IMG/VR virus record: IMGVR_UViG_2541047968_000015
Coordinates: 1-10,718 of that record
Length of the DNA stretch: 10,718 nt
From: a virus
Taxonomy: Duplodnaviria; Heunggongvirae; Uroviricota; Caudoviricetes
Reading direction: 5' to 3' (one strand)
The first letter of the stretch is position 1. Every line of letters begins with the position of its first letter. Positions 1-10,718 of this stretch are shown here, in pieces. The position numbers and the translations under genes are program-made. The notes beneath the pieces were generated by a model. That model searched no databases, was not told the DNA's origin, and was given only the letters and a program-made list of their open reading frames with translations.

Positions 1-339
1 TGCAGCACGACGGTATAAGCCCCTGGACTCCAGTTCTTCCGCCTGGCGGGTCAGGCACAAAATCACCCTGGGATCGTTAGTGCCGACATAGAAATTGCGC
101 ACAGGTATGGTTTCAAGAACAGGTTGCAGTTTCTCCTCCTGCGATATCTCAGCCTGGTGTGGGAAATGTCTGCGTGTTTTCCCTTCACAACAGTGAGCCA
201 CACGGCCACTCTGACGTAACTTGCTTGCTGACTGCAGAACGCACTGTCGTGAGTAACCAGCAAAAGCATCCGCAATGTCACCTGAAGTACACCCCGGATG
301 GGCTTCAATGAATTTCTGTACATCGTTCATCAGACTCAT
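1..339 (-). CDS. Hypothetical protein, 3' end beyond window start (113 codons in window)
   Basis: Not in the ORF track. Hand translation of the minus strand from ATG (339-337) is open to position 1: MSLMNDVQKFIEAHPGCTSGDIADAFAGYSRQCVLQSASKLRQSGRVAHCCEGKTRRHFPHQAEISQEEKLQPVLETIPVRNFYVGTNDPRVILCLTRQAEELESRGLYRRAA. A GGGGG Shine-Dalgarno and the upstream gene's TGA stop sit directly 5' of the ATG (AGGGGGTGAtcATG). Function not recognised. Confidence 0.5.
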   Translation of the reverse strand, partial: MSLMNDVQKFIEAHPGCTSGDIADAFAGYSRQCVLQSASKLRQSGRVAHCCEGKTRRHFPHQAEISQEEKLQPVLETIPVRNFYVGTNDPRVILCLTRQAEELESRGLYRRAA

Positions 340-341
340 GA

Positions 342-1325
342 TCACCCCCTGAATCCTGTCGGGATCTGGCTGTAGTCCACGTTGTCGTAACTGGCTTTGA
401 AGTACGGGTCCTCGCGTCTGGCTGCAGATACCGCAGGAACTTCCCAGGATTCTTCGAAATGACGATCCGGACCAAAGAACGTGACAGCCTGTTTCACAAA
501 TTGTGTGCCGCTATTGCCCATCGCAGATACCCAGCCCGCGTAGCGTTTCACACCTTCCAGCATGGCTTCGGGGTTTACCCCCTCGTTCAAACGGGCTTTC
601 CAGGCTTTGAAGGCTGCTGATTTTGAATTGCCACCAGCACGTTTGGGATATTCCTGCCAGGCCTGTTCAAATTCCGGTGAATATTCCTGTCGGGCAGAAC
701 GCGCTGGCGCAGACGCGTCAGCGGATGCATCAATAGTGTTTTTAGTCTCCGTTGTAATCTCTGTAGTAATCTCTGTATTTGTATCAACATTCGGCGTATC
801 CCCTGTTCCGTTATGACGTCGGGGGGTGTTCCGTTTTAACGTAATAGCTGTATCGCTGATTGCATTATTGCTGTTACTTTCTGGCGAAACAGAAGAAGGT
901 GTGGTGATGGCCGCAATTGCCTGTGGGTTGATCCCGACAAACAAAATATTGCTGCATTTCACCCCATCGAGCATTTCCACCGTGCGTAAATCCAGAGTAA
1001 TAAACCCTGCATCGCGCAGACGCTTCAGCGCATCTGCGGTTTCCCTTTTCCCGAAACCAAACTGCTCAGCAAACGCCTGGTAGCTTCTTTGCAGTTTGTC
1101 GCCCTGAAAACGCTTGCGATATCCCAGCAACGCTCCGGTGTGCTCATCCCTGACCTCTGTCGGGCGGTACCAGTAAACGATCTCTGAAAGCAGAGCGATA
1201 GCCGTCGCATCCGGACGCCCACTGGGTAGTCGAATATATTTCCACCAGGTCGCAGGTGTAACATTGCCGGAAATATTAATTTGACCAATAGCCATAACTT
1301 CCGGTGTGGGGGCGTAACGGCTCAT
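342..1325 (-). CDS. Phage replication initiation / replisome-organiser protein (O-like)
   Basis: 327-aa ORF with AGGAGG 4 nt upstream of the ATG. The C-terminal region (FEQAWQEYPKRAGGNSKSAAFKAWKARL ... GTQFVKQAVTFFGPDRHFEESWEV) has the W/K-rich signature I associate with phage replication-initiator families. The ATG overlaps the upstream gene's stop (ATGA). Position in the cro-side operon matches lambda O or Rac ydaU. Confidence 0.75.
   Translation of the reverse strand: MSRYAPTPEVMAIGQINISGNVTPATWWKYIRLPSGRPDATAIALLSEIVYWYRPTEVRDEHTGALLGYRKRFQGDKLQRSYQAFAEQFGFGKRETADALKRLRDAGFITLDLRTVEMLDGVKCSNILFVGINPQAIAAITTPSSVSPESNSNNAISDTAITLKRNTPRRHNGTGDTPNVDTNTEITTEITTETKNTIDASADASAPARSARQEYSPEFEQAWQEYPKRAGGNSKSAAFKAWKARLNEGVNPEAMLEGVKRYAGWVSAMGNSGTQFVKQAVTFFGPDRHFEESWEVPAVSAARREDPYFKASYDNVDYSQIPTGFRG
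754..777. repeat. Perfect tandem direct repeat, 2 x 12 bp (gtaatctctgta), inside the replication gene linker region
   Basis: Seen directly: 754-765 and 766-777 are identical. It encodes the TEITTEITTE linker of the replication protein. A 9-bp direct repeat tgttccgtt lies nearby at 805-813 and 828-836. Confidence 0.7.
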
Positions 1326-1621
1326 ACAACCTCCTTCCGCGGCATGAGAATTGTGTAGCCACGCGCAGGTTGTAGTCTGGCTTTTGCATCAATAGTAAGC
1401 GTTGCAATTTTTCGGATATGAAGATAACCAGCTCTTTCCAGTGCCAGGGTTTCCCTGAATATCGCTTGCTTAGAACAACAGCAGAAATCAGCAAGCACCT
1501 GATGATCAATAACTCTCTCGCCTTCACCGTCTGAAGAACCCGACATCAAAACACGCAACATAATCAGGCGCTGAATCGGGTTATCGAAAGCACATCCGCA
1601 CACAAACTGAAAACAGTTCAC
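1322..1621 (-). CDS. Hypothetical small protein (99 aa)
   Basis: ORF with GTG start overlapping the upstream stop (GTGA) and its own stop overlapping the replication gene's ATG (ATGA), so it is translationally coupled within the leftward operon. No family recognised. Confidence 0.5.
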   Translation of the reverse strand: MNCFQFVCGCAFDNPIQRLIMLRVLMSGSSDGEGERVIDHQVLADFCCCSKQAIFRETLALERAGYLHIRKIATLTIDAKARLQPARGYTILMPRKEVV

Positions 1622-1842
1622 GCCACACCTCCCAGACGCTTAAACATTTTTCCGGAGCAAAAGGCTATAAGCGGCATACTGACGCGGTAATTACGGCCCA
1701 GCGGTTCACAAATCACCTTCTGACATTCACGGTCAACCAGGCTAACACGTAGAACATGCCCTGCAGGCGTGGTGTACCACTGACCCGGACGAGGACAACG
1801 GAAAGTATGATTGGTAAACCGTTTGAAAATATTCCGGATCAT
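1618..1842 (-). CDS. Hypothetical small protein (74 aa)
   Basis: ORF whose ATG (1842-1840) overlaps the Rha-like stop (ATGA); coupled within the leftward operon. No family recognised. Confidence 0.5.
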   Translation of the reverse strand: MIRNIFKRFTNHTFRCPRPGQWYTTPAGHVLRVSLVDRECQKVICEPLGRNYRVSMPLIAFCSGKMFKRLGGVA

Positions 1843-2384
1843 TTGCGCCCCCTTACCTCTGAAGGGTTCAGCGACAAATTTATGAGACTGGCCAGTAGCG
1901 CCGCGTCGTTGATGCGGTCATACAGACTTACAGCCAGCGGGGATTCGGCTTTTGCCAACATGGGATAAAGCTGCTGCAGCCAGACCTTGTGGATTACCGA
2001 CAGGTGGGAGTAAAGCACGCTGGCGTTATCTGCGGCATCGCTCAGCGTGGATGGCTTTGAAAGCAGTTTTTCCATCTGGTTAAAGGCATTGATGTATGCC
2101 TCTTTGAACTGGGCAGCACGTTTACCCGTGAAACCCATAGCAAGAAACGCAAAGCCGTCGCGGGTTATTTGATAGCAAGGTAGTTTGCGGCCTGTGCAAT
2201 CGGTGTAATCACTCACCGAAAAATTGCGGGCAGTGAATGATGCGGAACATTCAAGCGTGCGGATCTTTTTCAGTACATCGTCATGACGTTTGGAGAAGAA
2301 GTTGGCAACAGCCAGGGATGAAGTAACAGCCTGACCATCAACGATGGCAATTTCAGGTTGAGTGAGGGTTGGGATCGTAGCCAT
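1839..2384 (-). CDS. rha: Phage regulatory protein Rha-like (pRha domain), 181 aa
   Basis: Internal ATG at 2384-2382 preceded by GGAGG with an 8-nt spacer. The protein starts MATIPTLTQPEIAIVDGQAVTSSLAVANFFSKRHDDVLKKIRTL ... YQITRDGFAFLAMGFTGKRAAQFKEAYINAFNQME, matching the Rha family signature (F.KRHD.VL..IR ... DGF.FL.MGFTGK.A..FKE.YI.AF). The ORF track merges it with a 201-codon upstream in-frame extension. Confidence 0.8.
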   Translation of the reverse strand: MATIPTLTQPEIAIVDGQAVTSSLAVANFFSKRHDDVLKKIRTLECSASFTARNFSVSDYTDCTGRKLPCYQITRDGFAFLAMGFTGKRAAQFKEAYINAFNQMEKLLSKPSTLSDAADNASVLYSHLSVIHKVWLQQLYPMLAKAESPLAVSLYDRINDAALLASLINLSLNPSEVRGRK

Positions 2385-2987
2385 GATGGCAGCCTCCGTA
2401 TGCAATGGATAACTTCCACCACCGGAAACGCCAATTTCGCTGGTGGTGAACTGAGCAGGGTTGGCGTAACCGGCGCATACGGAAACCGGCGCACCTTTCG
2501 GTGCCCCCACCCAGCCCACCATAATTTGGGTATAGCTGAGTTGTAGCAACAAAAAAGACGCTAACGCGCCAATTGTCGCCGTATGCAATTCCAGGACGCC
2601 AATCCCGACACCCGCTTTATAAGGTGCCTGAACAGTGTAACGTCCCGGAATGGCAGAATCAATGTGCTGGTGGTCCTTCACACTCAACAAAATCACGCCT
2701 GAATTTCCACAAAGGACTAAAGCACTCATGCTGGTAGTCTTTGCGAAGATAGATAACGCGCTGTGTTTCTGGCTCCCAACGAATAACATGGACATAAAGC
2801 CCTCTTCCGTCACGAAACCAGCGGTTAAGTTCCTGCACAACTCGCCCCCCACAGTCAGGTAAAGTTCTCTGTGGTTACTTACAGCCAGGTGATTTGGTAA
2901 TCTGCATTCATGCCGTAACAACAGGTGTTCAGCGACGCTGACCACCAGCTGTTGCGACAAACGGTTATTTGCCGTTAAACTATTCAT
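2385..2987 (-). other. In-frame open segment (201 codons) between the YdaT-like and Rha-like genes; coding status unresolved
   Basis: ATG at 2987-2985 overlaps the YdaT-like stop (ATGA) and the frame runs without a stop into the Rha ATG. The translated sequence is low in charged residues (about 11 percent), rich in S/L/A/G/V, and matches no family I recognise. Could be a real N-terminal domain, a separate or fused gene, or a fortuitously open frame. Confidence 0.3.
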
Positions 2988-3541
2988 GCGTTAGTTTCTC
3001 CACAACCAGAAGCAATCGACGCCACGACGCCCGGAGCTGCACACTCGCGGGCGTTACTATTTTCTGGAGCGCAGAAGATTTTGTAGACCAGTGCTGCATG
3101 CTCCTGGAGCTTCGAAATTGAGAGGTACAGCTCGTCGTTAATTGCTGTCTTCTCATGCGGTTCCACTACACCGTCTTCGATTGCTGAACGAATCTGTCTG
3201 GAATAACTGCCGATCTGTTCAATGACTTCCAGCAGACGCTGGTTAATATCGGCGTTGTCCACATCCTCGACGTCAGGAAGAGACACAAAGACGCCATTTG
3301 CAGACTGCGCCACAGCGTCAGCAATGAAGTGAGTTCCACCAGCACGTTGTAAAATCATTGCCCATCCCAGCGGGAAAATCTGATCGCCATCTGCACGAAG
3401 GCGGTTGAATAATGCGTTCTCTGTTACATCCAGCCACTCAGCAGCTTCAGCGTAACCCCCCGGCAACGCCGCGATAGTTTTTCTGACAGCTTTCACGTAC
3501 CACTCAGGCTGTTTTTCCACTTTCCAGTGATGATTACCCAC
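2984..3541 (-). CDS. CII-like / YdaT-like regulatory protein (185 aa)
   Basis: ORF with GTG start (3541-3539) preceded by GGAGG with a 6-nt spacer, overlapping the end of the cro-like gene. Its position directly after the cro-like gene matches lambda cII or Rac ydaT; the family assignment is by position and weak recollection only. Confidence 0.55.
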   Translation of the reverse strand: MGNHHWKVEKQPEWYVKAVRKTIAALPGGYAEAAEWLDVTENALFNRLRADGDQIFPLGWAMILQRAGGTHFIADAVAQSANGVFVSLPDVEDVDNADINQRLLEVIEQIGSYSRQIRSAIEDGVVEPHEKTAINDELYLSISKLQEHAALVYKIFCAPENSNARECAAPGVVASIASGCGETNA

Positions 3542-3794
3542 GGCTTACCTCCTGTTCCTGTGGTTTAAACCCATTCTGGTTTTGGCTAGATTGAAAACGT
3601 GCCGGATAAAGAATCTGCATTTCGCTGATTTCACCCTTAAAAAAATTGGCCAGACGTTCTGCAAGATCGATAGATGGAATTTGTTCCAGTCTTTCAATAC
3701 GACTCAGCGTCGCTGGATTGACCTGAACGCCCGCAGCAACATGCTGCAAAGTAAATCCGTGCGCCTTACGCACATTCCGTAATGGTGATTGCAT
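3534..3794 (-). CDS. cro: Cro-like HTH (XRE-family) transcriptional regulator, 86 aa
   Basis: ORF with ATG at 3794-3792 and GGAGG 5' of it. Helix-turn-helix motif (GFTLQHVAAGVQVNPATLSRIERLEQIPS). Divergent from the repressor gene across a 97-bp operator region. Confidence 0.8.
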   Translation of the reverse strand: MQSPLRNVRKAHGFTLQHVAAGVQVNPATLSRIERLEQIPSIDLAERLANFFKGEISEMQILYPARFQSSQNQNGFKPQEQEVSRG

Positions 3795-3891
3795 ATAACC
3801 TCCACATATTGCGTGATGAGCATATTATTTCACGCAAATATTTTGCGCAAGTTGATTTGCTTAACGCGCAATAAAGAAATGTAATAAACGC
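3795..3891. promoter_or_regulatory. Divergent immunity-region promoter/operator segment (PR-like for cro; cI promoter unresolved)
   Basis: Minus-strand promoter candidate: -35 TTGCGC (complement of 3845-3850), 17-nt spacer, -10 TAATAT (complement of 3822-3827). Inverted repeat TTGCGTGA-N13-TCACGCAA at 3809-3837 overlaps the -10 and start region. Palindrome TTGCGCAA at 3843-3850. A 15-bp TTGC-N7-GCAA site at 3857-3871. Confidence 0.6.
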
Positions 3892-4584
3892 ATGAACATA
3901 GGAAACCGAGTCAGACAACTTCGCCAGGCGAAGAACATGAAAATCGCCGATCTCGCTGAAGCAATAGGAGTGGATGCGGCGAATATCTCACGCCTGGAAA
4001 CAGGTAAGCAGAAACAATTCACTGAACAAGCCCTGAGTAATATTGCCAGGAGCTTAGGTGTTGATATTGCTGATCTCTTTACCTCAGACGTCAAAAGTAA
4101 TACTGTATGTAAAAACAGTATTAGTGAGGATGTTGCGCAGGTGAAGGATGTATTCCGTATTGAAATGCTGGATGTCAGTGCCAGTGCGGGAAATGGCCTT
4201 ATCCAGGGCGGTGATGTCATTGATGTGATTCATGCCATTGAATACAGAACTGATAATGCTGTATCGATGTTTGGTGGACGACCAGCAAATCACATTAAAG
4301 TTATCAACGTTCGTGGGGACAGTATGTGTCCAACCATTGAGCCAGGAGATCTCATCTTCGTTGATATCAGTATCAATCAGTTTGATGGGGATGGTATATA
4401 TGTATTTGGTTTTGATGATAAAATTTACGTCAAACGACTGCAAATGATACCTGATAAACTGCTGGTAATTTCTGATAATCAGATTTACCGCGAATGGGGA
4501 ATTACCAGCGAAAACGAACATCGGTTTATGGTCTTTGGAAAGGTCTTAATCAGTCAGTCACAAACCCTTAAGCGACACAATTAA
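3892..4584 (+). CDS. cI: cI-like prophage repressor, N-terminal HTH plus C-terminal S24 (LexA-like) peptidase domain, 230 aa
   Basis: N-terminal HTH (MKIADLAEAIGVDAANISRLETGKQ). C-terminal S24 signature with catalytic Ser in GDSM (VINVRGDSMCPTIEPGDLIFVD) and downstream Lys (IYVKRL). Divergent from the cro-like gene. Confidence 0.9.
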   Translation: MNIGNRVRQLRQAKNMKIADLAEAIGVDAANISRLETGKQKQFTEQALSNIARSLGVDIADLFTSDVKSNTVCKNSISEDVAQVKDVFRIEMLDVSASAGNGLIQGGDVIDVIHAIEYRTDNAVSMFGGRPANHIKVINVRGDSMCPTIEPGDLIFVDISINQFDGDGIYVFGFDDKIYVKRLQMIPDKLLVISDNQIYREWGITSENEHRFMVFGKVLISQSQTLKRHN

Positions 4585-4605
4585 CCCCCTACCTCAACAT
4601 CAATT

Positions 4606-4630
4606 AGCCACCAGAAGGTGGCTTTTCATT
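4606..4630 (+). terminator. Rho-independent terminator downstream of the repressor gene
   Basis: Perfect 7-bp stem AGCCACC (4606-4612) / GGTGGCT (4617-4623) with loop AGAA, followed by TTTCATT. Confidence 0.8.
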
Positions 4631-4640
4631 ACCCACCAAA

Positions 4641-4694
4641 TTGCATATCTCGCAATAAAAACACTTGCATAATGCGCAACTTCATTTTATCTTT
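4641..4694 (+). promoter_or_regulatory. PL-like operator pair and candidate rightward early promoter
   Basis: Two 15-bp TTGC-N7-GCAA sites (4641-4655 ttgcatatctcgcaa; 4665-4679 ttgcataatgcgcaa) share the half-site motif of the cro/cI intergenic sites. Candidate -35 TTGCAT (4665-4670) and weak -10 TATCTT (4688-4693) with a 17-nt spacer. Promoter hexamers are weak; the operators are the firmer observation. Confidence 0.45.
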
Positions 4695-5123
4695 CTTTCC
4701 AGACCTACAAACAAGGTACTAACAAAATTTGGTTGTAACACGGCGTATGGCACATGCGTCGTTAGCGGTCTGGGGACGTTAAAGGGGACAATCCACTCCT
4801 TGCTCGGGCAAACAAACCAGGTAGCCGGAATGTGCAAGTCAATGAGGATGCTGATAAGACGCCTAACCAGCGTGGCGATTCGGTTTGACGCCTGGGAAGA
4901 GACCAGGACGCAACGATGAGAGCATTTATGGAGCCGCGACAAAGTGTGGTGCCGTAACTGGCTAAGTGCTCTCAGCGTTGTGGTGAATGCGCAGGCTGAT
5001 GCGCGAAAGACATTGCAGCTATTGCGGAAAAGAGCTGTTCGGCGGGGCAATTAAACGCCCGTGAGAGTCTGAAATAACCGCAAGCCGGAGATCAGCACCG
5101 GTCACCACAACAGCCACTGCTTT

Positions 5124-5170
5124 GGCGGTACCAGTTTGTACACTTGCTTCCGGCTGGTACCGCTCTTTTT
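5124..5170 (+). terminator. Hairpin with T-tract (candidate intrinsic terminator or attenuator) in the leader of the rightward operon
   Basis: Perfect 10-bp inverted repeat GCGGTACCAG (5125-5134) / CTGGTACCGC (5154-5163) with a 19-nt loop, followed by TCTTTTT (5164-5170). The loop is long for a canonical terminator. Confidence 0.45.
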
Positions 5171-5259
5171 ACAAAACAGAGAAGAGCATCACCGGACGAC
5201 GGGCTCATAACCCAATCCATCCGGGCGGCTGCCACCGCAGGTGTTCTTCTCTGTTTTGT
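5171..5259. repeat. Perfect 15-bp inverted repeat with 59-bp spacer, immediately upstream of the RdgC-like RBS
   Basis: ACAAAACAGAGAAGA (5171-5185) and its exact reverse complement TCTTCTCTGTTTTGT (5245-5259). The left arm abuts the T-tract of the preceding hairpin; the right arm ends about 22 nt before the GAGGAAAA Shine-Dalgarno. Confidence 0.7.
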
Positions 5260-5293
5260 GGAGAAACTAATACATTGTGCAGAGGAAAATAGA

Positions 5294-6211
5294 ATGAAAT
5301 TACCAAAATTTCGTAACGCAATTGTGTACCGAGCAACATTACCTAGTATACAGGCTATTGAAGGTCATCTTCTCGAACTCCCTTATTCTGAAATCGGGGA
5401 AACAGAATTTTCACGGTCCTCTTTTGTAGAGAATCCTGTCACTGGTGAACTGGTAACTCCGATATCTGGTGGGTACGCAATGGTAATCCGTCATGATCAG
5501 AAAATAATTCCCCGACATGTCGTCATGAAAGAAGCTAATTCTCGAATCCAAACAATCGAAAATATGTCCGGGAATAAATTAAAGCGTGCCGAACGACTGG
5601 CCATTATTGATAACGTACGAGTAGATCTATGCAAACAGGCATTTGTTAAGTCTACTCTGATTCTTGCATTGTACAGCACTGATGAGAAATTATTGGTAAT
5701 CAACACAACCAATAAAATAATAGCCGGTATGGTATGCGCAATGCTGATTAAGGTTGTCGGTTCAGTGAAAACAGAAACAATCAACATCAGTGATATCAAG
5801 AATGGACTGACTACACGCCTGAATAACTACATCAATGGTGCAGCCAATGCATTTGAAGGATTCACTGTCGGAAATTATATTCAGCTATCACGCTACGCAG
5901 ATCAAAAGGAAATTATTCGCTACTCAGCTGAGCATGAGTCAATTCAAAGCGAACTGGCCGATAGCCTTAGTAGTAGTTTCACTGCTGATAAAATGGAGTT
6001 ATCCGGTTGCGGTGTGACCTTCATTCTTACCGAAAATTTCCATTTTTCGCGCATCAATACTCAATCTCAGACATTTAATGATGAAGATGATAAAGCATTC
6101 CAGTGGCGTCATCAGACTGGCGCTGACCTTTTCCAATTCAGCAAGGTAGTTAATTTGATGTGTGACCTTCTTTCTTACAAAGAAGATAAAAGCCAAAATC
6201 CAACAACTTAA
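5294..6211 (+). CDS. RdgC-like recombination-associated DNA-binding protein (305 aa)
   Basis: ATG at 5294 preceded by GAGGAAAA. The N-terminus MKLPKFRNAIVYRATLPS parallels RdgC (MLWFKNLMVYRLS...), and further blocks (AMVIRHDQKIIPRHVVMKEANSRIQTIE; LILALYSTDEKLLVINTTNKIIAGMVCAMLIKVVGSVKT) align with my recollection of E. coli RdgC. The track's TTG-start extension (5144) is rejected. The gene is noticeably AT-rich relative to its neighbours. Confidence 0.8.
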   Translation: MKLPKFRNAIVYRATLPSIQAIEGHLLELPYSEIGETEFSRSSFVENPVTGELVTPISGGYAMVIRHDQKIIPRHVVMKEANSRIQTIENMSGNKLKRAERLAIIDNVRVDLCKQAFVKSTLILALYSTDEKLLVINTTNKIIAGMVCAMLIKVVGSVKTETINISDIKNGLTTRLNNYINGAANAFEGFTVGNYIQLSRYADQKEIIRYSAEHESIQSELADSLSSSFTADKMELSGCGVTFILTENFHFSRINTQSQTFNDEDDKAFQWRHQTGADLFQFSKVVNLMCDLLSYKEDKSQNPTT

Positions 6212-6215
6212 AAAA

Positions 6216-6259
6216 ATTGCAGCAATCATCCCATGTTAAATGGGCTGGATTGCTGCAAT
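6216..6259. repeat. 12-bp perfect inverted repeat (ATTGCAGCAATC / GATTGCTGCAAT) with 20-bp spacer between the rdgC-like and HD genes
   Basis: Arms at 6216-6227 and 6248-6259. The spacer contains a nested CCCAT/ATGGG mini-hairpin. An A7 run (6209-6215) precedes it, so on the minus strand it reads as stem plus U-tract. Confidence 0.6.
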
Positions 6260-6301
6260 CAAAATTCAGAGCGGTGCAGCGCATATAACGTGGAGAACAA
6301 A

Positions 6302-6838
6302 ATGTCATTTATTAAAACTTTTTCCGGGAAGCATTTTTATTATGACAAGATAAATAAAGACGACATCGTGATTAACGATATCGCGGTTTCCCTTTCAAAT
6401 ATCTGCCGCTTTGCCGGTCATCTTTCTCACTTCTACAGTGTCGCCCAACATGCGGTGCTTTGCAGCCAGCTGGTGCCGCAGGAATTTGCTTTTGAAGCGT
6501 TAATGCATGATGCAACAGAAGCGTATTGCCAGGATATTCCCGCTCCACTGAAACGCCTTCTTCCTGACTATAAACGGATGGAAGAAAAAATAGACGCCGT
6601 AATCCGTGAGAAATACGGGTTACCCCCGGTTATGAGCACGCCTGTGAAATATGCCGATCTCATCATGCTGGCAACCGAACGCCGCGATCTCGGGCTTGAT
6701 GATGGCTCTTTCTGGCCAGTACTGGAAGGTATCCCGGCAACAGAAATGTTCAAAGTTATTCCACTGGCTCCGAGCCATGCCTACGGGATGTTTATGGAGC
6801 GCTTTAACGAGTTATCGGAGTTACGCACATGCGCATGA
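6302..6838 (+). CDS. HD-domain phosphohydrolase (YfbR-like 5'-nucleotidase fold), 178 aa
   Basis: ATG at 6302 preceded by GGAGA. Metal-binding HD signature: H in VAQHAV, HD in EALMHDATEAY, and downstream D in ADLIMLATERRD. The track's longer start at 6233 lies inside the inverted repeat and is rejected. Confidence 0.75.
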   Translation: MSFIKTFSGKHFYYDKINKDDIVINDIAVSLSNICRFAGHLSHFYSVAQHAVLCSQLVPQEFAFEALMHDATEAYCQDIPAPLKRLLPDYKRMEEKIDAVIREKYGLPPVMSTPVKYADLIMLATERRDLGLDDGSFWPVLEGIPATEMFKVIPLAPSHAYGMFMERFNELSELRTCA

Positions 6839-7440
6839 ATGTTTTCGAAATGGAAGGGTTTCTTCGCGGGAAATGTGTACCACGAGATCTGAAAGTGAAT
6901 GAAACAAATGCTGAATATCTGGTGCGTAAATTTGCTGAAGCGGAGGCCAAGATTTTGGCTCTGTCCGAAGACCAACAGAAATCGATTGAGTCAATTAAGC
7001 AGGCTGATGCAGCTGTTAAGTTGGCACACGAGAAGTTTTCGGCGCTGGCGGCGGAGAATGCGGGGCTGAAACACGCAATGGCCGTAACTCTTGAGCATGT
7101 GTCGGTCACGGATGCAGGGCAGGCTGGTGTTGCTGCAATGATTATCAACGATGCCCTGCACCACAGCGAAACTCCAGCCACCGATGCTTTCCTGGCTGAA
7201 ATTCGTGCGGAAGCACGCAACGAGGGGATTAACTATACCGCAAGCCGTCTTGCTGCTGCTTTCAATCACGGATTTATCAATAAGTCTTTACGTGAAGTTT
7301 TCGACGTTACACGCATGATTCTGTCAGCGAAAGAAGAGTTGGCTAATGAACCACACCCGATTGATGGCCTGTCCGGTGAATATGCGGAGAAATCCCTAGA
7401 AGAATGGGCGGAACAGATTCGCAAAGGAGGCAACCAGTGA
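6829..7440 (+). CDS. Hypothetical coiled-coil protein of the Ea22-like accessory region (203 aa)
   Basis: ATG at 6829 with GGAG 8 nt upstream, overlapping the HD gene stop. Ala/Glu/Lys-rich heptad-like N-terminal half. Family uncertain. Confidence 0.65.
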   Translation: MRMNVFEMEGFLRGKCVPRDLKVNETNAEYLVRKFAEAEAKILALSEDQQKSIESIKQADAAVKLAHEKFSALAAENAGLKHAMAVTLEHVSVTDAGQAGVAAMIINDALHHSETPATDAFLAEIRAEARNEGINYTASRLAAAFNHGFINKSLREVFDVTRMILSAKEELANEPHPIDGLSGEYAEKSLEEWAEQIRKGGNQ

Positions 7441-7661
7441 GCGGAAAAAGAATGACTAACAGAGAGCTTGTCGATGCCGCGATTAAGCTTGCTGGTGATT
7501 TTTATTCAATGATGGGGTACACGCATCGCCCAGGCTTCAAATATTGGGAGTCTCCTCACCCGCAAGAGCAACTGGTATTTCAAATGGCCTGCCGTGCTTT
7601 TGAGGTTATTTGCGGTTCTGATGTGATGGACGCCGTTGCCGACTTGGAGGATGAAGAGTGA
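7437..7661 (+). CDS. Hypothetical small protein (74 aa, GTG start)
   Basis: GTG at 7437 overlaps the upstream TGA (GTGA) with GGAGG 6 nt upstream. The track's longer 7404 start lacks an RBS. An in-frame ATG at 7452 is an alternative start. Confidence 0.6.
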   Translation: MSGKRMTNRELVDAAIKLAGDFYSMMGYTHRPGFKYWESPHPQEQLVFQMACRAFEVICGSDVMDAVADLEDEE

Positions 7662-8023
7662 GCGAGATTAACTATCAGGCACTGCGTGAGGCAGCAGTAG
7701 CAATTGAAACAGTGGCAACGCCTCAAAAATTGCAGGCGTTTCGGATGAAGGTCACACCGTCGGTGGTACTGGCGCTGCTGGATGAAATTAAGCGCCTGGA
7801 GGACACAAATATTGATGCTATGTGCCGAATTGCAGAACTGGAAGCGAGGGAAGTCGAGTTACCGGATGGCTACGAACCCCGTATGGGCCACCCAATAAAT
7901 AGCGGTGAGCGGGTGGTAATGATGCCGCACCACTTTGGTGGATGGCTGGACCGCTTCGACGTCGAGCACGCATTGCAGGCAGCGGGGATCAAATTCAAAA
8001 CAGCGGGGGTTGAGTACGAATGA
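7658..8023 (+). CDS. Ead/Ea22-like protein (121 aa)
   Basis: GTG start overlapping the upstream stop (GTGA) with GGAGG 7 nt upstream. The N-terminal motif INYQALREAA resembles the conserved start of Ead/Ea22-like proteins as I recall them. Confidence 0.6.
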   Translation: MSEINYQALREAAVAIETVATPQKLQAFRMKVTPSVVLALLDEIKRLEDTNIDAMCRIAELEAREVELPDGYEPRMGHPINSGERVVMMPHHFGGWLDRFDVEHALQAAGIKFKTAGVEYE

Positions 8024-8253
8024 TTGAGGGTATTAGCAATAAATCGTTGAACACAGCATGTGTCGACGGTGGGTTGTTGTACAAAGTGACGTTTACGCAA
8101 ATCGACAACGAAGATAACGCATTCACTGTGATTTACACGTCGCCAGCGATGGCGCAGAAGTGGGTGGATCTGCACAGGCTATGTGGTTTTCGTGTTGAGT
8201 GGGGGTGCTATGAGATGCGATGCAGATGGCATCATCGGGGGGATGAAAAATGA
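8020..8253 (+). CDS. Hypothetical small protein (77 aa)
   Basis: ATG overlaps the upstream stop (ATGA); G-rich stretch upstream. No family recognised. Confidence 0.55.
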   Translation: MIEGISNKSLNTACVDGGLLYKVTFTQIDNEDNAFTVIYTSPAMAQKWVDLHRLCGFRVEWGCYEMRCRWHHRGDEK

Positions 8254-8627
8254 GCACTACGCTTGAGCAATGGCTGGAACAGCAGCACGGCAAAATTGAT
8301 GTTGATTGCGGCTGTGTGAGCACTGAAACGCTTATGCACTGGATGCGTGTGGCGTATGAGGCTGGCAACTCTCCGGTAACTCCGGAGAGTTGGATAAGCT
8401 GTAGTGAGCGAATGCCAGAAATGGGAGAGCGACAATGCTATGTGTTAGCTGCTGACTTTAAAAACAACTACCCACCAAACATCCCCAACACTCAGGTCGG
8501 CGTATATGGCGACTGGTTTAATGATGGCAAGCCCACTTGGGATGACGGTGATGGCGAAGACCTGTATCTCAAGGAGGTAACCCACTGGATGCCGCTGCCA
8601 GAACCGCCGCAAGAGGTGAATCAATGA
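8250..8627 (+). CDS. DUF551-like phage protein (125 aa)
   Basis: ATG overlaps the upstream stop (ATGA). The C-terminal motif ...GDWFNDGKPTWDDGDGEDLYLKEVTHWMPLPEPP matches my recollection of the DUF551 signature (HWMP.P.PP). Confidence 0.65.
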   Translation: MSTTLEQWLEQQHGKIDVDCGCVSTETLMHWMRVAYEAGNSPVTPESWISCSERMPEMGERQCYVLAADFKNNYPPNIPNTQVGVYGDWFNDGKPTWDDGDGEDLYLKEVTHWMPLPEPPQEVNQ

Positions 8628-8707
8628 GCTGGCCTGATGCAATCGTAACTCTGGGGGTGGTATTCGCAGCAGCGTTTGTTGTGTTCTCGATTTGTCGATG
8701 GGGATAA
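8624..8707 (+). CDS. Candidate 27-aa single-pass hydrophobic peptide
   Basis: Hand-translated: ATG at 8624 overlaps the DUF551 gene stop (ATGA), giving MSWPDAIVTLGVVFAAAFVVFSICRWG then TAA. It exactly fills the gap before the next gene. Below the ORF-track size cutoff. Confidence 0.35.
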   Translation: MSWPDAIVTLGVVFAAAFVVFSICRWG

Positions 8708-8711
8708 CCAC

Positions 8712-8954
8712 ATGTTCGCTTTGATTCAACGCGGGCAGATATACACCGATAGTGCTGGCTACCCGATAAAAATTGTTCGCTGCATAAACAACACTGTGTT
8801 GTACAGAAGAATGGATGGGCGAACACAGTCGGTAAAAATAAACGATTTTAATGAACTGTTTGAACGGATCGATCACCAGGAATACCGACAAATTCTGGCA
8901 GAAACAGAGCAGGAAGCTCATCTGAAAAAATTACGAGCCATGAAAAGGAAGTAA
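8712..8954 (+). CDS. Hypothetical small phage protein (80 aa; possibly DUF4222-like)
   Basis: ATG at 8712 with GGGGA 7 nt upstream. The track's TTG start at 8676 overlaps the small peptide ORF and is rejected. The pattern IQRGQIYTDSAGYPIKIV...VLYRR...F resembles small DUF4222-type proteins, but this is a weak recollection. Confidence 0.55.
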   Translation: MFALIQRGQIYTDSAGYPIKIVRCINNTVLYRRMDGRTQSVKINDFNELFERIDHQEYRQILAETEQEAHLKKLRAMKRK

Positions 8955-8957
8955 ACA

Positions 8958-9104
8958 ATGAATAAAGCATTTGAACAATGGGTCCACCAGCGTTACGGCA
9001 ATCGCTATGACCTGACGCGAGATGTTGACGGTTTCTACTGTCGTGAAATTGTGAAACGAATGTTTGAAGTGTGGTGCCACTGCCGTGGGCTGAGTGTTGT
9101 GTGA
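8958..9104 (+). CDS. Candidate small Cys/His-containing protein (48 aa)
   Basis: Hand-translated: AGGAAG 8 nt upstream of ATG 8958, giving MNKAFEQWVHQRYGNRYDLTRDVDGFYCREIVKRMFEVWCHCRGLSVV then TGA at 9102-9104. It fills the gap before xis. Below the track cutoff. Confidence 0.45.
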   Translation: MNKAFEQWVHQRYGNRYDLTRDVDGFYCREIVKRMFEVWCHCRGLSVV

Positions 9105-9112
9105 GGTAATGC

Positions 9113-9349
9113 ATGGGCAATGTGATTCAACTGGCTCCCAATGAATGGGTTTGTGAAAGCGTTCTAATCGCAATTACCGGGCTCAAACCAGGCACAATTC
9201 TTCGGGCCCGGAAAGAATGCTGGATGGTTGGAAGAGAGTATATTCACGTATCACCAGACGGTAATCCAAAGCCTTCCAGTGAATGTATGTATAACAGAAA
9301 AGCAATAGGTGCCTGGGTCGCTTCAATGAAAAACAAACAACCTGGGTGA
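9113..9349 (+). CDS. xis: Excisionase-like protein (78 aa)
   Basis: Immediately upstream of the integrase. The segment ILRARKECWMVGREYIHV parallels lambda Xis VRRWVRECRIFPP..GREYLFH. GAGGT lies upstream of the ATG. Confidence 0.65.
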   Translation: MGNVIQLAPNEWVCESVLIAITGLKPGTILRARKECWMVGREYIHVSPDGNPKPSSECMYNRKAIGAWVASMKNKQPG

Positions 9350-9404
9350 TTTAATGCCATGAAGTATGTAAGCTCGTATCGCTCTTGGGCGTCTGGAGGT
9401 ATCA

Positions 9405-10718
9405 ATGGATAAAGTCAAATATCCAACAGGCGTCGAAAACCACGGCGGCACATTACGCATCTGGTTTAATTTTAAAGGTAAACGTGTCAGGGAAAATCTT
9501 GGTGTCCCTGACACTGCCAAGAACAGGAAGATCGCCGGGGAACTGCGGACATCGGTATGTTTTGCCATCCGCACAGGAAGCTTTGATTATGCTGCACAGT
9601 TCCCTGACTCCCCCAACCTTCAGGCTTTTGGGGTAAGTAAAAAAGAAATTACGGTGAAGGAACTTGAAGAAAAGTGGCTGGATCTGAAACGAATGGAAAT
9701 CTCTGCAAATGCATTCAATCGCTATGAATCCGTTGCAAGAACGATGGTTTCGAAAATTGGAGGCAGTAGACTGGTGTCATCGGTAACCAAAGAGGAATTG
9801 CTGTATATCAGGAAAGATTTGCTAACCGGGTATCAGAATTCAACGAAAAACAAAGCAGCAGCAAAAGGACGGAGCGTCGTTACTGTAAATTATTACATGA
9901 CGACAATCGCTGGAATGTTTCAGTTTGCTGCAGATCACGGTTACTTAGAAGCAAATCCCTTCCAGGGAATTAAGCCTCTTAAAAGAGCCAGGGCAGAGCC
10001 AGATCCGCTAACTCGTGACGAATTTATTCGCCTGATAGATGCTTGCCGACATCAGCAGACGAAAAACCTGTGGTCATTGGCTGTGTACACAGGAATGCGT
10101 CACGGTGAACTGGTCTCCCTGGCCTGGGAAGATATCGATCTGAAGGCAGGAACAATTACCATCAGGCGCAATTATACGAAACTTGGTGAGTTCACTCTAC
10201 CGAAAACTGAAGCAAGCACAAACAGGGTTGTGCACCTTATCCAGCCCGCTATCAGTGTCCTGAAAAATCAGGCTGAAATGACAAGACTGGGTAAGCAGTA
10301 CAACATCAAGGTGCAACTACGTGAATATGGACGTTCAGTGAACCATGAATGTACTTTCGTGTTTAACCCTCAAGTGGTTAGAAAAAGCGAACAGGTAGGT
10401 TTTGTCTACAAAGTCGATTCTGTAGGTGACTCATGGGAAACAGCCATTAAGCGTGCAGGGATCAGGCATCGAAAGGCATACCAGTCACGACACACTTATG
10501 CGTGCTGGTCATTATCTGCCGGAGCAAACCCAAGCTTCATTGCCAGCCAGATGGGCCATGCAAGTGCCCAGATGGTATTCAATGTATACGGAGCATGGAT
10601 GACTGACAGCAATGCAGAACAGATCGCAATGCTGAATCAGAAGCTGACAGATTATGTCCCAATGATGCCCCATAGTCACCAAAGTGACACCAGAGGCTTA
10701 TTAAAATCAGTAAGTTAA
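9405..10718 (+). CDS. int: Tyrosine site-specific integrase, IntR/Rac-type with N-terminal arm-binding domain (437 aa)
   Basis: GGAGGT 5 nt upstream of the ATG. N-terminus PTGVENHGGTLRIWFNFKGKRVRENLG is typical of the arm-type DNA-binding domain. C-terminal catalytic region has RHTYACWSL ... MGHASAQMVFNVYGAW with the Tyr nucleophile. The stop codon coincides with the window end. Confidence 0.9.
   Translation: MDKVKYPTGVENHGGTLRIWFNFKGKRVRENLGVPDTAKNRKIAGELRTSVCFAIRTGSFDYAAQFPDSPNLQAFGVSKKEITVKELEEKWLDLKRMEISANAFNRYESVARTMVSKIGGSRLVSSVTKEELLYIRKDLLTGYQNSTKNKAAAKGRSVVTVNYYMTTIAGMFQFAADHGYLEANPFQGIKPLKRARAEPDPLTRDEFIRLIDACRHQQTKNLWSLAVYTGMRHGELVSLAWEDIDLKAGTITIRRNYTKLGEFTLPKTEASTNRVVHLIQPAISVLKNQAEMTRLGKQYNIKVQLREYGRSVNHECTFVFNPQVVRKSEQVGFVYKVDSVGDSWETAIKRAGIRHRKAYQSRHTYACWSLSAGANPSFIASQMGHASAQMVFNVYGAWMTDSNAEQIAMLNQKLTDYVPMMPHSHQSDTRGLLKSVS

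Follow-up and report, generated by a model that had tools for sequence, protein, structure and literature searches.

An RNA immunity cassette within a long open reading frame upstream of a Rha-family gene: a probable relative of the nested eta gene of P4 in a lambdoid prophage

The stretch of DNA analyzed here, referred to as the window, comprises 10,718 nucleotides (nt) of a virus of the Caudoviricetes (IMG/VR record IMGVR_UViG_2541047968_000015, positions 1 to 10,718) and carries on its minus strand a 603-bp segment (2987-2385) that lies directly upstream of, and in frame with, a gene for a Rha-family regulator. An initial annotation of this segment, made from the sequence alone, had offered four options for it: fusion of a novel domain or gene to Rha, a hydrophobic protein, decay of a gene at a mosaic junction, or non-coding DNA. 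Our in silico analysis leaves little room for doubt that the 603 bp carry a known type of RNA immunity cassette, of the kind represented by c4 of phage P1, CI of P4, and IsrK of Gifsy-1. The segment probably also constitutes the upstream part of a nested gene that runs across this cassette in the manner of P4 eta; on the analogy with P4, translation of the long frame is somewhat favored over its absence. None of the four options describes the segment correctly on its own. The in-frame join and the ATGA coupling to which the initial annotation had drawn attention are nevertheless meaningful, because the frame is free of stop codons in every diverged relative of the module and the layout is that of P4 eta/kil. 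All features described below are located on the minus strand unless stated otherwise.

Two small RNAs and their complementary targets

Comparison of the segment with Rfam revealed a C4/CI-type antisense RNA at positions 2526..2439 (RF01695; 80.7 bits at a gathering score of 45, E 5e-15), which matches the family model over its full length (1-87). The loop of its hairpin 2 (a', CCGUAUGC, 2482-2475) is complementary to two target sequences, a1 and a2, while a single-stranded stretch (b', ACGCCAA, 2467-2461) is complementary to b1 and b2. The second target pair is found at the downstream end of the leader: b2 (UUGGCGU, 2434-2428) pairs with b', and a2 (GCAUACGGA, 2403-2395) pairs with a' and overlaps the Shine-Dalgarno sequence of the Rha gene (GGAGG, 2397-2393), with which it shares GGA. 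This ribosome-binding site, positioned 8 nt before ATG 2384, bears out the earlier statement that Rha possesses a strong initiation site of its own.

The structure of the C4 RNA is well preserved among its relatives. In an alignment of 42 distinct sequences, 97.6% of the cells pair in the Rfam structure, compared to 36-50% when the partners were slid against each other; both sides change in 15/27 pairs, and the observed values were reached by none of 500 shuffles. A pattern scan of viral contigs yielded 29 distinct C4 loop variants. Each of them (100%) is matched by a complement of 7 nt or more at the downstream a2 site, and 66% also have one at the upstream a1 site; non-self combinations of loop and target reach 2.3% (a2) and 3.9% (a1). 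Even E. coli relatives with about 92% identity elsewhere differ in the loop (e.g., GUUGAC, GAUAAC, UUGAUC), and a1 and a2 both compensate. The 258-nt leader folds better than its shuffled counterparts (z -5.55), and its minimum-free-energy fold pairs the C4 region with the Rha ribosome-binding site. Score, a compensatory three-helix structure and two complementary target pairs together place this RNA in the C4 family.

Upstream of C4, an IsrK/seqA-type small RNA was detected at 2627..2551 (RF01394; 58.9 bits at a gathering score of 50, E 7.7e-11). It harbors the first target pair, b1 (UUGGCGU, 2602-2596), complementary to b' of C4, and a1 (GCAUACGG, 2586-2579), complementary to a'. A terminator scan found an intrinsic terminator at its 3' end (stem 2570-2557, U6 2556-2551), so that its assignment to IsrK is based on both a score over the gathering threshold and a terminator at the expected end; the c4-a1b1 model (RF03163) gave 20.4 bits, below its gathering score of 46.7. 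A promoter-like site, read by eye, precedes this RNA (2662-2634; TTGATT 2662-2657, a spacing of 17 nt, and TACACT 2639-2634), and the 5' end of IsrK follows 7 nt downstream. The site overlaps the stop codon of an embedded gene for a DUF4222 protein, is conserved in relatives in which the upstream gene differs, and corresponds in position to the isrK promoter of Gifsy-1.

Modules of this kind also occur in multiple copies. E. coli MS7163 (NZ_CP026853.1; locus L002) contains tandem IsrK-C4-Rha modules at locus positions 2192-2377 and 3055-3243 that differ in loop specificity (targets GCAUACGG and UCGCACAUG), and the second Rha gene is recorded by RefSeq as a partial pseudogene. Several IsrK-C4 modules are likewise present in loci L107 and L042.

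The long open frame and its neighborhood

The open reading frame (ORF) that crosses the two small RNAs extends over 382 codons (2987..1839), from ATG 2987 to a stop codon at 1839, with 201 leader codons (codons 1-201, positions 2987-2385) in frame with the 181-codon Rha gene. This agrees with the initial annotation, according to which the frame is open for 603 bp upstream of Rha, back to an ATG coupled to the preceding stop. The ATG overlaps the TGA stop of a ymfL-like gene in an ATGA arrangement that is directly visible in the sequence (2987-2984), GGAG is found 9 nt upstream of the ATG, and the same junction joins ymfL and ymfM in the e14 element of E. coli K-12. Naming the upstream gene YdaT-like had been loose, since it matches Pfam Phage_CP76 and is called YmfL by RefSeq. 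Candidate in-frame starts of the long ORF are ATG 2987, ATG 2795 or 2789, GTG 2696 (the choice of RefSeq) and AUG 2522. The leader segment is widespread and was recovered from 1,462 of 5,426 complete E. coli genomes, about a quarter. Its translation is indeed poor in charged residues, with a content of Asp, Glu, Lys, and Arg of 10.9% compared to 20-23% in three neighboring proteins. The claim that it resembles nothing recognizable did not hold: residues 117-212 match Pfam Phage_ASH (PF10554; 63.2 bits at a cut-off of 26), and the ORF matches phrog_821, phrog_6928, and phrog_1170.

Stop codons are distributed very unevenly among the three frames, and the openness of the long frame exceeds chance expectation by far, in the window as well as among relatives. 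Across 22 distinct leaders, each extending from the AUG within the 5' end of C4 to the start codon of the downstream gene, there were no stop sites in the long frame and 12 in each of the other two; across 40 distinct 150-nt upstream segments (spacer, IsrK and promoter), the long frame again had none and the others had 17 and 22. When lineages were clustered at 85% identity, P4 included, the long frame was open in 14/14 and each of the other frames in 0/14, counts that overstate the independence of the lineages, which share ancestry. The length differences between IsrK and C4 among lineages amount to 3, 39, and 45 nt. Variable sites in the C4 part of the leader fall almost evenly on the three codon positions (26/29/29) and display no third-position bias. 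The spacer between the ymfL-like stop and the DUF4222 start (2983..2839), comprising codons 2-50 of the long frame and read by this frame only, has no Pfam match; its 34 variable sites are distributed 6/13/15 over the long-frame codon positions, and the only indel that relative L117 displays in it measures 6 nt and keeps the frame. In a set of 78 C4 loci, the frame of the downstream gene was open back past IsrK in 44, open past C4 in 7, and closed in 27.

Wholly within the long ORF and in another frame is the DUF4222 gene (2838..2659; 59 codons, GTG start), which is annotated by RefSeq and matches Pfam PF13973 with 51 bits at a cut-off of 27. Relatives display 60 variable sites over its span, distributed 12/11/37 by DUF4222 codon position; since the third position of DUF4222 is the second position of the long frame, 37/60 of the variable sites fall on long-frame position 2. 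Identity to K-12 e14 is 64% (ungapped) for the DUF4222 frame and 34% (gapped) for the long frame. Because of this third-position bias and the difference in identity, DUF4222 is, by these comparative measures, the coding frame within its span. The long frame over DUF4222 is nonetheless open in the window and in L117, L063, and L107, while synonymous recodings of DUF4222 left it open in just 3-4% of trials. This recoding test rests on few lineages, as the single-protein locus search for diverse DUF4222 relatives gave only copies that were 95-98% identical.

A second out-of-frame overlap is found in sister loci in which an Icd-like gene follows the cassette and starts one base earlier, out of frame with the long frame; it has 81 codons in L013, L054, L106, and L108, and 64 codons in L034, L047, L099, and L110. 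The long frame is open over the whole of this gene and continues 56-288 codons into the next one. As estimated from synonymous recodings, such an open frame has a chance of 2-3% with the 81-codon gene and of about 20% with the 64-codon gene. In L013 and L054 the gene following the Icd-like gene resembles an integrase, and the frame reaches 416 codons. In L045 an eta-like frame extends without a stop for over 700 codons on the upstream side of C4 and is continuous with a large upstream ORF.

In view of the numbers of stop codons, the lengths of the indels, and the outcome of the recodings, we discarded the reading in which the long frame is merely a spurious ORF over a non-coding RNA as the sole explanation. 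The long frame appears to be kept open by selection; as far as the substitution patterns can tell, the preserved feature is the ability to be translated and not the protein sequence.

The Rha-family regulator itself (2384..1839; 181 aa) matches PF09669 (E 5e-31) and TIGR02681; within the 382-codon ORF, the Rha domain of Pfam corresponds to residues 222-307. Names attached to this stretch by PHROG include 'Rha-like transcriptional regulator' and 'anti-repressor'. Rha is the first gene after the RNA cassette and occupies the position of P4 kil, P1 icd/ant, and Gifsy-1 anrP. A homology to Gifsy-1 AnrP was considered and rejected, since BLASTP gave no similarity and AnrP is an ORF6N protein. A comparison of window positions 2300-2384 with L001, L007, L081, and L117 places the mosaic break between alternative downstream genes (among them the 181-aa Rha and a 77-aa protein without an assigned family) about 8-10 codons past the start of the gene, following a conserved MAT(I/V)P(T/A)LT. 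Because the break falls inside the downstream gene, the cassette travels with the start of the gene it controls. Rha is followed by a 74-codon ORF (window 1842-1618) that begins MIRNIFKRFTNH and whose start codon overlaps the Rha stop as ATGA. Where modules occur in tandem (L131), this N-terminus is continued directly by a second IsrK-C4 cassette (MIRNIFKLFTNRHQHIDSAIPGRY...), which suggests that recombination has repeatedly joined sequences at a point immediately before the internal promoter.

The segment also holds two Chi octamers on the plus strand, at exactly the positions noted initially, and a third at 2942-2949 on the minus strand that had been missed. The first (2439-2446) is the complement of CCACCAGC at the C4 3' end, just past the closing stem, and is not conserved, as many relatives have CCACCAGU in its place; the second (2666-2673) falls within the last DUF4222 codons (Gly-Pro-Pro-Ala-His) and has changed bases in relative L117, from which it is missing. 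The window as a whole contains six Chi octamers, four on the minus and two on the plus strand (631-638, 2439-2446, 2666-2673, 2942-2949, 3336-3343, and 8984-8991), compared to 0.28 expected from dinucleotide shuffles. Six per 10.7 kb is about 2-3 times the E. coli genome average. The 9-bp direct repeat ACCGGCGCA is real and present in just two copies in the window, although its correct plus-strand positions are 2469-2477 and 2485-2493, not 2466-2474 and 2484-2492. Each copy includes one arm (3' or 5') of C4 hairpin 2, whose core CCGG is palindromic. We rejected the Chi sites as a functional feature since neither of the two plus-strand octamers is conserved in relatives, and the repeat as a binding site or iteron since it represents the two hairpin arms. 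Chi sites and repeat are by-products of sequences that form the C4 stems or lie at the end of the DUF4222 gene.

Competing explanations and a possible mechanism

Several observations weigh against the view that the long frame is the upstream part of an eta-like gene. Its codon-usage score is 0.10 per codon, while most genes in the window score 0.1-0.4, and by codon usage and GC content by position it is not separable from non-coding DNA. This check, which the initial annotation had proposed, returned a signal too weak to be informative; the frame of DUF4222 itself scores just 0.14 per codon in the same analysis. To the shared ancestry of the lineages already mentioned come the 27/78 C4 loci with a closed frame, which indicate that the RNA cassette works without a long ORF, and Gifsy-1, the best-studied relative, which does not have the long frame. 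The gene controlled in the window, a 181-aa Rha protein (TIGR02681, PF09669), differs from the 65-aa Icd-like Kil of P4 (NF033153). A promoter scan with a threshold of 9/12 consensus positions found none, the site TTGATT-17-TACACT reaching 8/12. Furthermore, translation of the long frame, processing by RNase P, termination by Rho, and any role of Rha as an antirepressor enter the scheme as inferences.

Taken together, such observations could be accommodated by a non-coding leader with an accidental long ORF. The segment would then contain only the RNA cassette and DUF4222, the frame would be open owing to G+C-richness and RNA-level constraint, and ribosomes would never be found upstream of ATG 2384, or would at most start from AUG 2522 as in Gifsy-1. 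No constraint was seen at the amino-acid level, the codon score of the frame is low, all three frames are open over the 138-nt C4 segment in the window itself, and the frame is missing in Gifsy-1 and the 27 closed loci. Database start calls differ as well: RefSeq starts the gene at GTG 2696 in one genome; in another it chooses ATG 2789 and flags DUF4222 as a pseudogene, and in phage Ayreon the whole frame is annotated. We nonetheless consider an accidental frame unlikely, because it does not account for 14/14 diverged lineages with an open long frame against 0/14 for the other frames, which includes the poorly conserved spacer between IsrK and C4, for length differences that are multiples of three, or for the codons of DUF4222 and of the Icd-like gene, which leave the overlapping frame open against odds of 2-4%; moreover, P4 eta provides an experimentally studied precedent. 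A stop or frameshift between leader and downstream gene in relatives, which the initial annotation had named as the finding that would speak against a fused frame, is present in Gifsy-1 and is not found in the modules of the P4 and E. coli type.

A genuine folded N-terminal domain, either Ash or a new one, fused to Rha as a part of the regulator can claim the Phage_ASH match above cut-off at residues 117-212, the fact that phrog_821 spans residues 61-382 as one family, and the report of proteins with Ash plus Rha in Shiga toxin (Stx) phages (PMC8951638). In nucleotides, however, the Ash match covers 2639-2352 and coincides exactly with IsrK, C4, and the stretch with the a2/b2 targets, up to the first Rha codons. 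An obsolete ORF of P4 ('cI gene product (AA 1-137)'), which was drawn over the CI RNA, matches the same Pfam family PF10554, whereas P4 epsilon, the helper derepression protein also called Ash, matches PF25738 instead (L127, P4 NC_001609 8168-8584 and 7888-8175). Conservation tracks RNA pairing and not codons: the pairs of the RNA covary, variable sites are spread 26/29/29 over the codon positions in the C4 part, and with 37/60 on long-frame position 2 over DUF4222, the amino-acid sequence is not conserved as such, which speaks against a novel or folded domain. Further arguments against this fusion are the charged-residue content of only 10.9%, residues 1-116 that have no Pfam match and overlap DUF4222 out of frame, and the occurrence of the same 'domain' in front of unrelated downstream genes of 77, 120, 64, and 181 aa. 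We regard it as very improbable; the Pfam Ash 'domain' is the RNA cassette in translation. Hardly any weight can be given to a gene for a YmfM-type cell-division inhibitor, or a decayed remnant at a mosaic junction, that lost its stop and ran into Rha. The start codon and ATGA junction are common to K-12 e14 ymfM, BLASTP found 34% identity (E 1e-9), phrog_1170 (the YmfM family) matches residues 47-98, and overexpression of ymfM leads to filamentation (bioRxiv 10.1101/2020.11.19.390815). Against this, the similarity is limited to the DUF4222 overlap, where substitutions are synonymous for DUF4222 and not for YmfM; e14 has neither IsrK nor C4, and its ymfM looks like a truncated form and not an ancestor; and past the overlap the frame is maintained and has not decayed.

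The identification of the Ash match with the RNA cassette has consequences for public annotation. A survey of P4-like satellites that used PF10554 as a marker for epsilon (bioRxiv 10.1101/2021.03.30.437493) probably detected the eta/CI region. Homologs of CI and seqA inside Bro-network genes, Phage_ASH among them, have been noted for phage-inducible chromosomal islands (PMC10111431). Near-identical DNA in L001, L002, and L003 is inconsistently annotated: one genome has an 'ash family protein' from a GTG inside DUF4222, another a 'Rha family phage regulatory protein' from the upstream ATG with DUF4222 flagged as a partial pseudogene, and phage Ayreon a 278-aa coding sequence called 'immunity region'; the two small RNAs are annotated in none of these records. 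Reading the segment as an RNA immunity cassette with a read-through ORF corrects such inconsistent calls in about a quarter of E. coli genomes and explains the lack of an assigned function for the Pfam Ash 'domain'.

If the eta-like nested gene operates as its counterpart in P4 does, the following sequence of events can be envisaged. In the lysogen, the promoter inside the long ORF would give rise to short IsrK transcripts and to some read-through RNA, which would be processed to stable C4. C4 would pair with a2/b2 and block the entry of ribosomes at Rha, and the untranslated RNA would be prone to termination, leaving Rha and the downstream replication genes off; IsrK, which carries the same target sequences, could compete for C4 as a decoy. 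Upon induction, transcripts would start from the early promoter upstream of the cro-like gene, and ribosomes finishing the ymfL-like gene would restart at ATG 2987 and read through the cassette. Such translation would prevent both C4 pairing and termination and thereby allow synthesis of a long Ash-Rha protein and expression of the downstream genes. The 201 codons would accordingly represent a path for ribosomes and not a folded domain.

More tentatively, and with somewhat less than even confidence, we propose that lambdoid E. coli prophages use an ORF of this type, free to vary in its amino acids, to override RNA immunity, and that this ribosome path leads from the ymfL stop through DUF4222, a promoter, a terminator, and two small-RNA genes into whatever gene follows. 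Should this be true, neighboring genes would choose codons that keep the frame of a third party open, Pfam Ash would be the shadow of the ribosome path, and K-12 ymfM would be a truncated relic of it whose phenotype possibly stems from an unannotated DUF4222 ORF in the cloned fragment. A mechanism worked out only in the satellite P4 would be extended to ordinary lambdoid prophages and to out-of-frame gene overlaps, and a signal of frame maintenance in the absence of amino-acid constraint would provide a clean comparative case in which translation matters over its product. The cassette as such predicts a second, RNA-based layer of control on Rha and the replication genes beside the cI-like repressor. 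This layer has many specificity classes and could mediate cross-talk or exclusion between co-resident prophages.

Comparison with known immunity systems

The immI operon of phages P1 and P7, reportedly analyzed by Citron and Schuster in 1990 and by Biere et al. in 1992, is said to comprise the c4 antisense RNA, icd, and ant. The window shares with it an RNA of the C4 family that has two sets of targets for its a' and b' elements, the first located upstream and the second covering the ribosome-binding site of the gene that follows. Specificity variants of the window type, with their matched targets, parallel the heteroimmunity of P1 and P7, and other loci with this cassette carry Icd-like genes. 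In contrast to P1, which we set beside the window by description, the window has neither icd nor ant but Rha directly next to the cassette, and its score with the a1b1 model is 20.4 compared to the required 46.7.

A parallel to the leader ORF is found in Gifsy-1 of Salmonella (isrK-orf45-anrP; Hershko-Shalev et al. 2016, PMC4825925). IsrK and the terminator behind it, a C4-type RNA (STnc1160), and a leader ORF whose AUG lies within the 5' end of C4 can all be aligned with the window, and the next gene is antirepressor-like. Pairing of IsrK in cis with the C4 region corresponds to the inactive 'structure A' of that study. The orf45 of Gifsy-1 is translated, as detected by SPA (sequential peptide affinity) tagging, is needed for the translation of anrP, and is conserved as nucleotides and not as protein (PMC4825925). 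It is, however, a leader ORF of 45 codons with a stop two codons before its AUG and a second stop that overlaps the anrP AUG, so that it is out of frame with anrP. The homologous 46-codon segment of the window, identified by alignment (2522..2385), likewise begins at an AUG in the C4 5' end (AUG 2522) but has no stop on either side and shares its frame with Rha, into which it leads, and hence differs from orf45 proper. Further differences are that AnrP is an ORF6N protein unrelated to Rha and that the Gifsy-1 locus follows a gene for a Q-like antiterminator instead of being part of an early operon. Phage APSE-7 (LR794151; PMC7313666) likewise has isrK annotated ahead of C4, and a BRO-N gene of the antirepressor type comes next; the frame of this BRO gene is interrupted 10 codons before its start codon, and no eta-like ORF is present.

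E. coli K-12 e14 provides a comparison for the upstream part. Its ymfM (b1148) starts on the ymfL stop and, as in the window, encloses a DUF4222 ORF with the same offset between the two frames, but it ends after 112 codons, and the DUF4222 stop lies another 20 nt downstream; IsrK and C4 are not present, and protein similarity (34%) is confined to the overlap. The long frame does not qualify as a YmfM protein, since phrog_1170 covers the DUF4222 overlap only and the window frame runs 270 codons past the position of the ymfM stop. In K-12 (NC_000913.3; L125 3323-3681, record 1203822-1204180), ymfM holds an unannotated 59-codon DUF4222 ORF with a TTG start (locus 3502-3681), and the published pBAD ymfM clone contains this ORF except for its 6 final codons. 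We found no frame-specific controls in the ymfM preprint (bioRxiv 10.1101/2020.11.19.390815); because the clone spans nearly all of the DUF4222 ORF, either YmfM or the embedded DUF4222 product could be the source of the filamentation.

The entire arrangement has a counterpart in satellite P4. A 214-codon ORF of P4 (8812-8168), with three Met codons at 16-18, crosses the Rfam matches to isrK/seqA and C4/CI, both of which P4 yields, and ends in a 65-aa Icd-like protein. For the immunity region of P4, which comprises seqA, the CI RNA, and seqC, Forti et al. (1999, J Bacteriol 181:5225) are said to have reported two nested genes, eta with 197-199 aa and kil with 65 aa. According to the account of P4 in PMC10111431 (citing Forti et al. 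1999), transcripts from a constitutive promoter inside eta are soon terminated via CI/seqA interactions and processed to CI, Kil is made upon read-through, and translation of eta prevents termination. Window and P4 agree in the order of an IsrK/seqA-type RNA, a C4/CI RNA, and a target over the ribosome-binding site of the first downstream gene. In both, the start of a long ORF precedes the internal promoter and abuts the stop of the upstream gene, and this ORF crosses both RNAs in frame with the first downstream gene; the junction reads '...EAAIMATTLT' in P4 and '...EAAIMATIPT' in the window, and both match Pfam Ash and phrog_6928. The window displays the crossing ORF, the arrangement of a start abutting an upstream stop, and the maintained frame of eta/kil, without a short product of the Kil type. 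Unlike that of P4, its long ORF has about 120 more codons upstream of IsrK that overlap the whole out-of-frame DUF4222 gene, and the element that carries it is not a satellite but the early operon of a lambdoid, e14-like prophage (cI-like, cro-like, ymfL). The object in the window is a member of the C4 and IsrK families with the architecture of P4 eta/kil, and differs from it in the downstream gene, in its setting within a lambdoid early operon, and in the additional out-of-frame gene.

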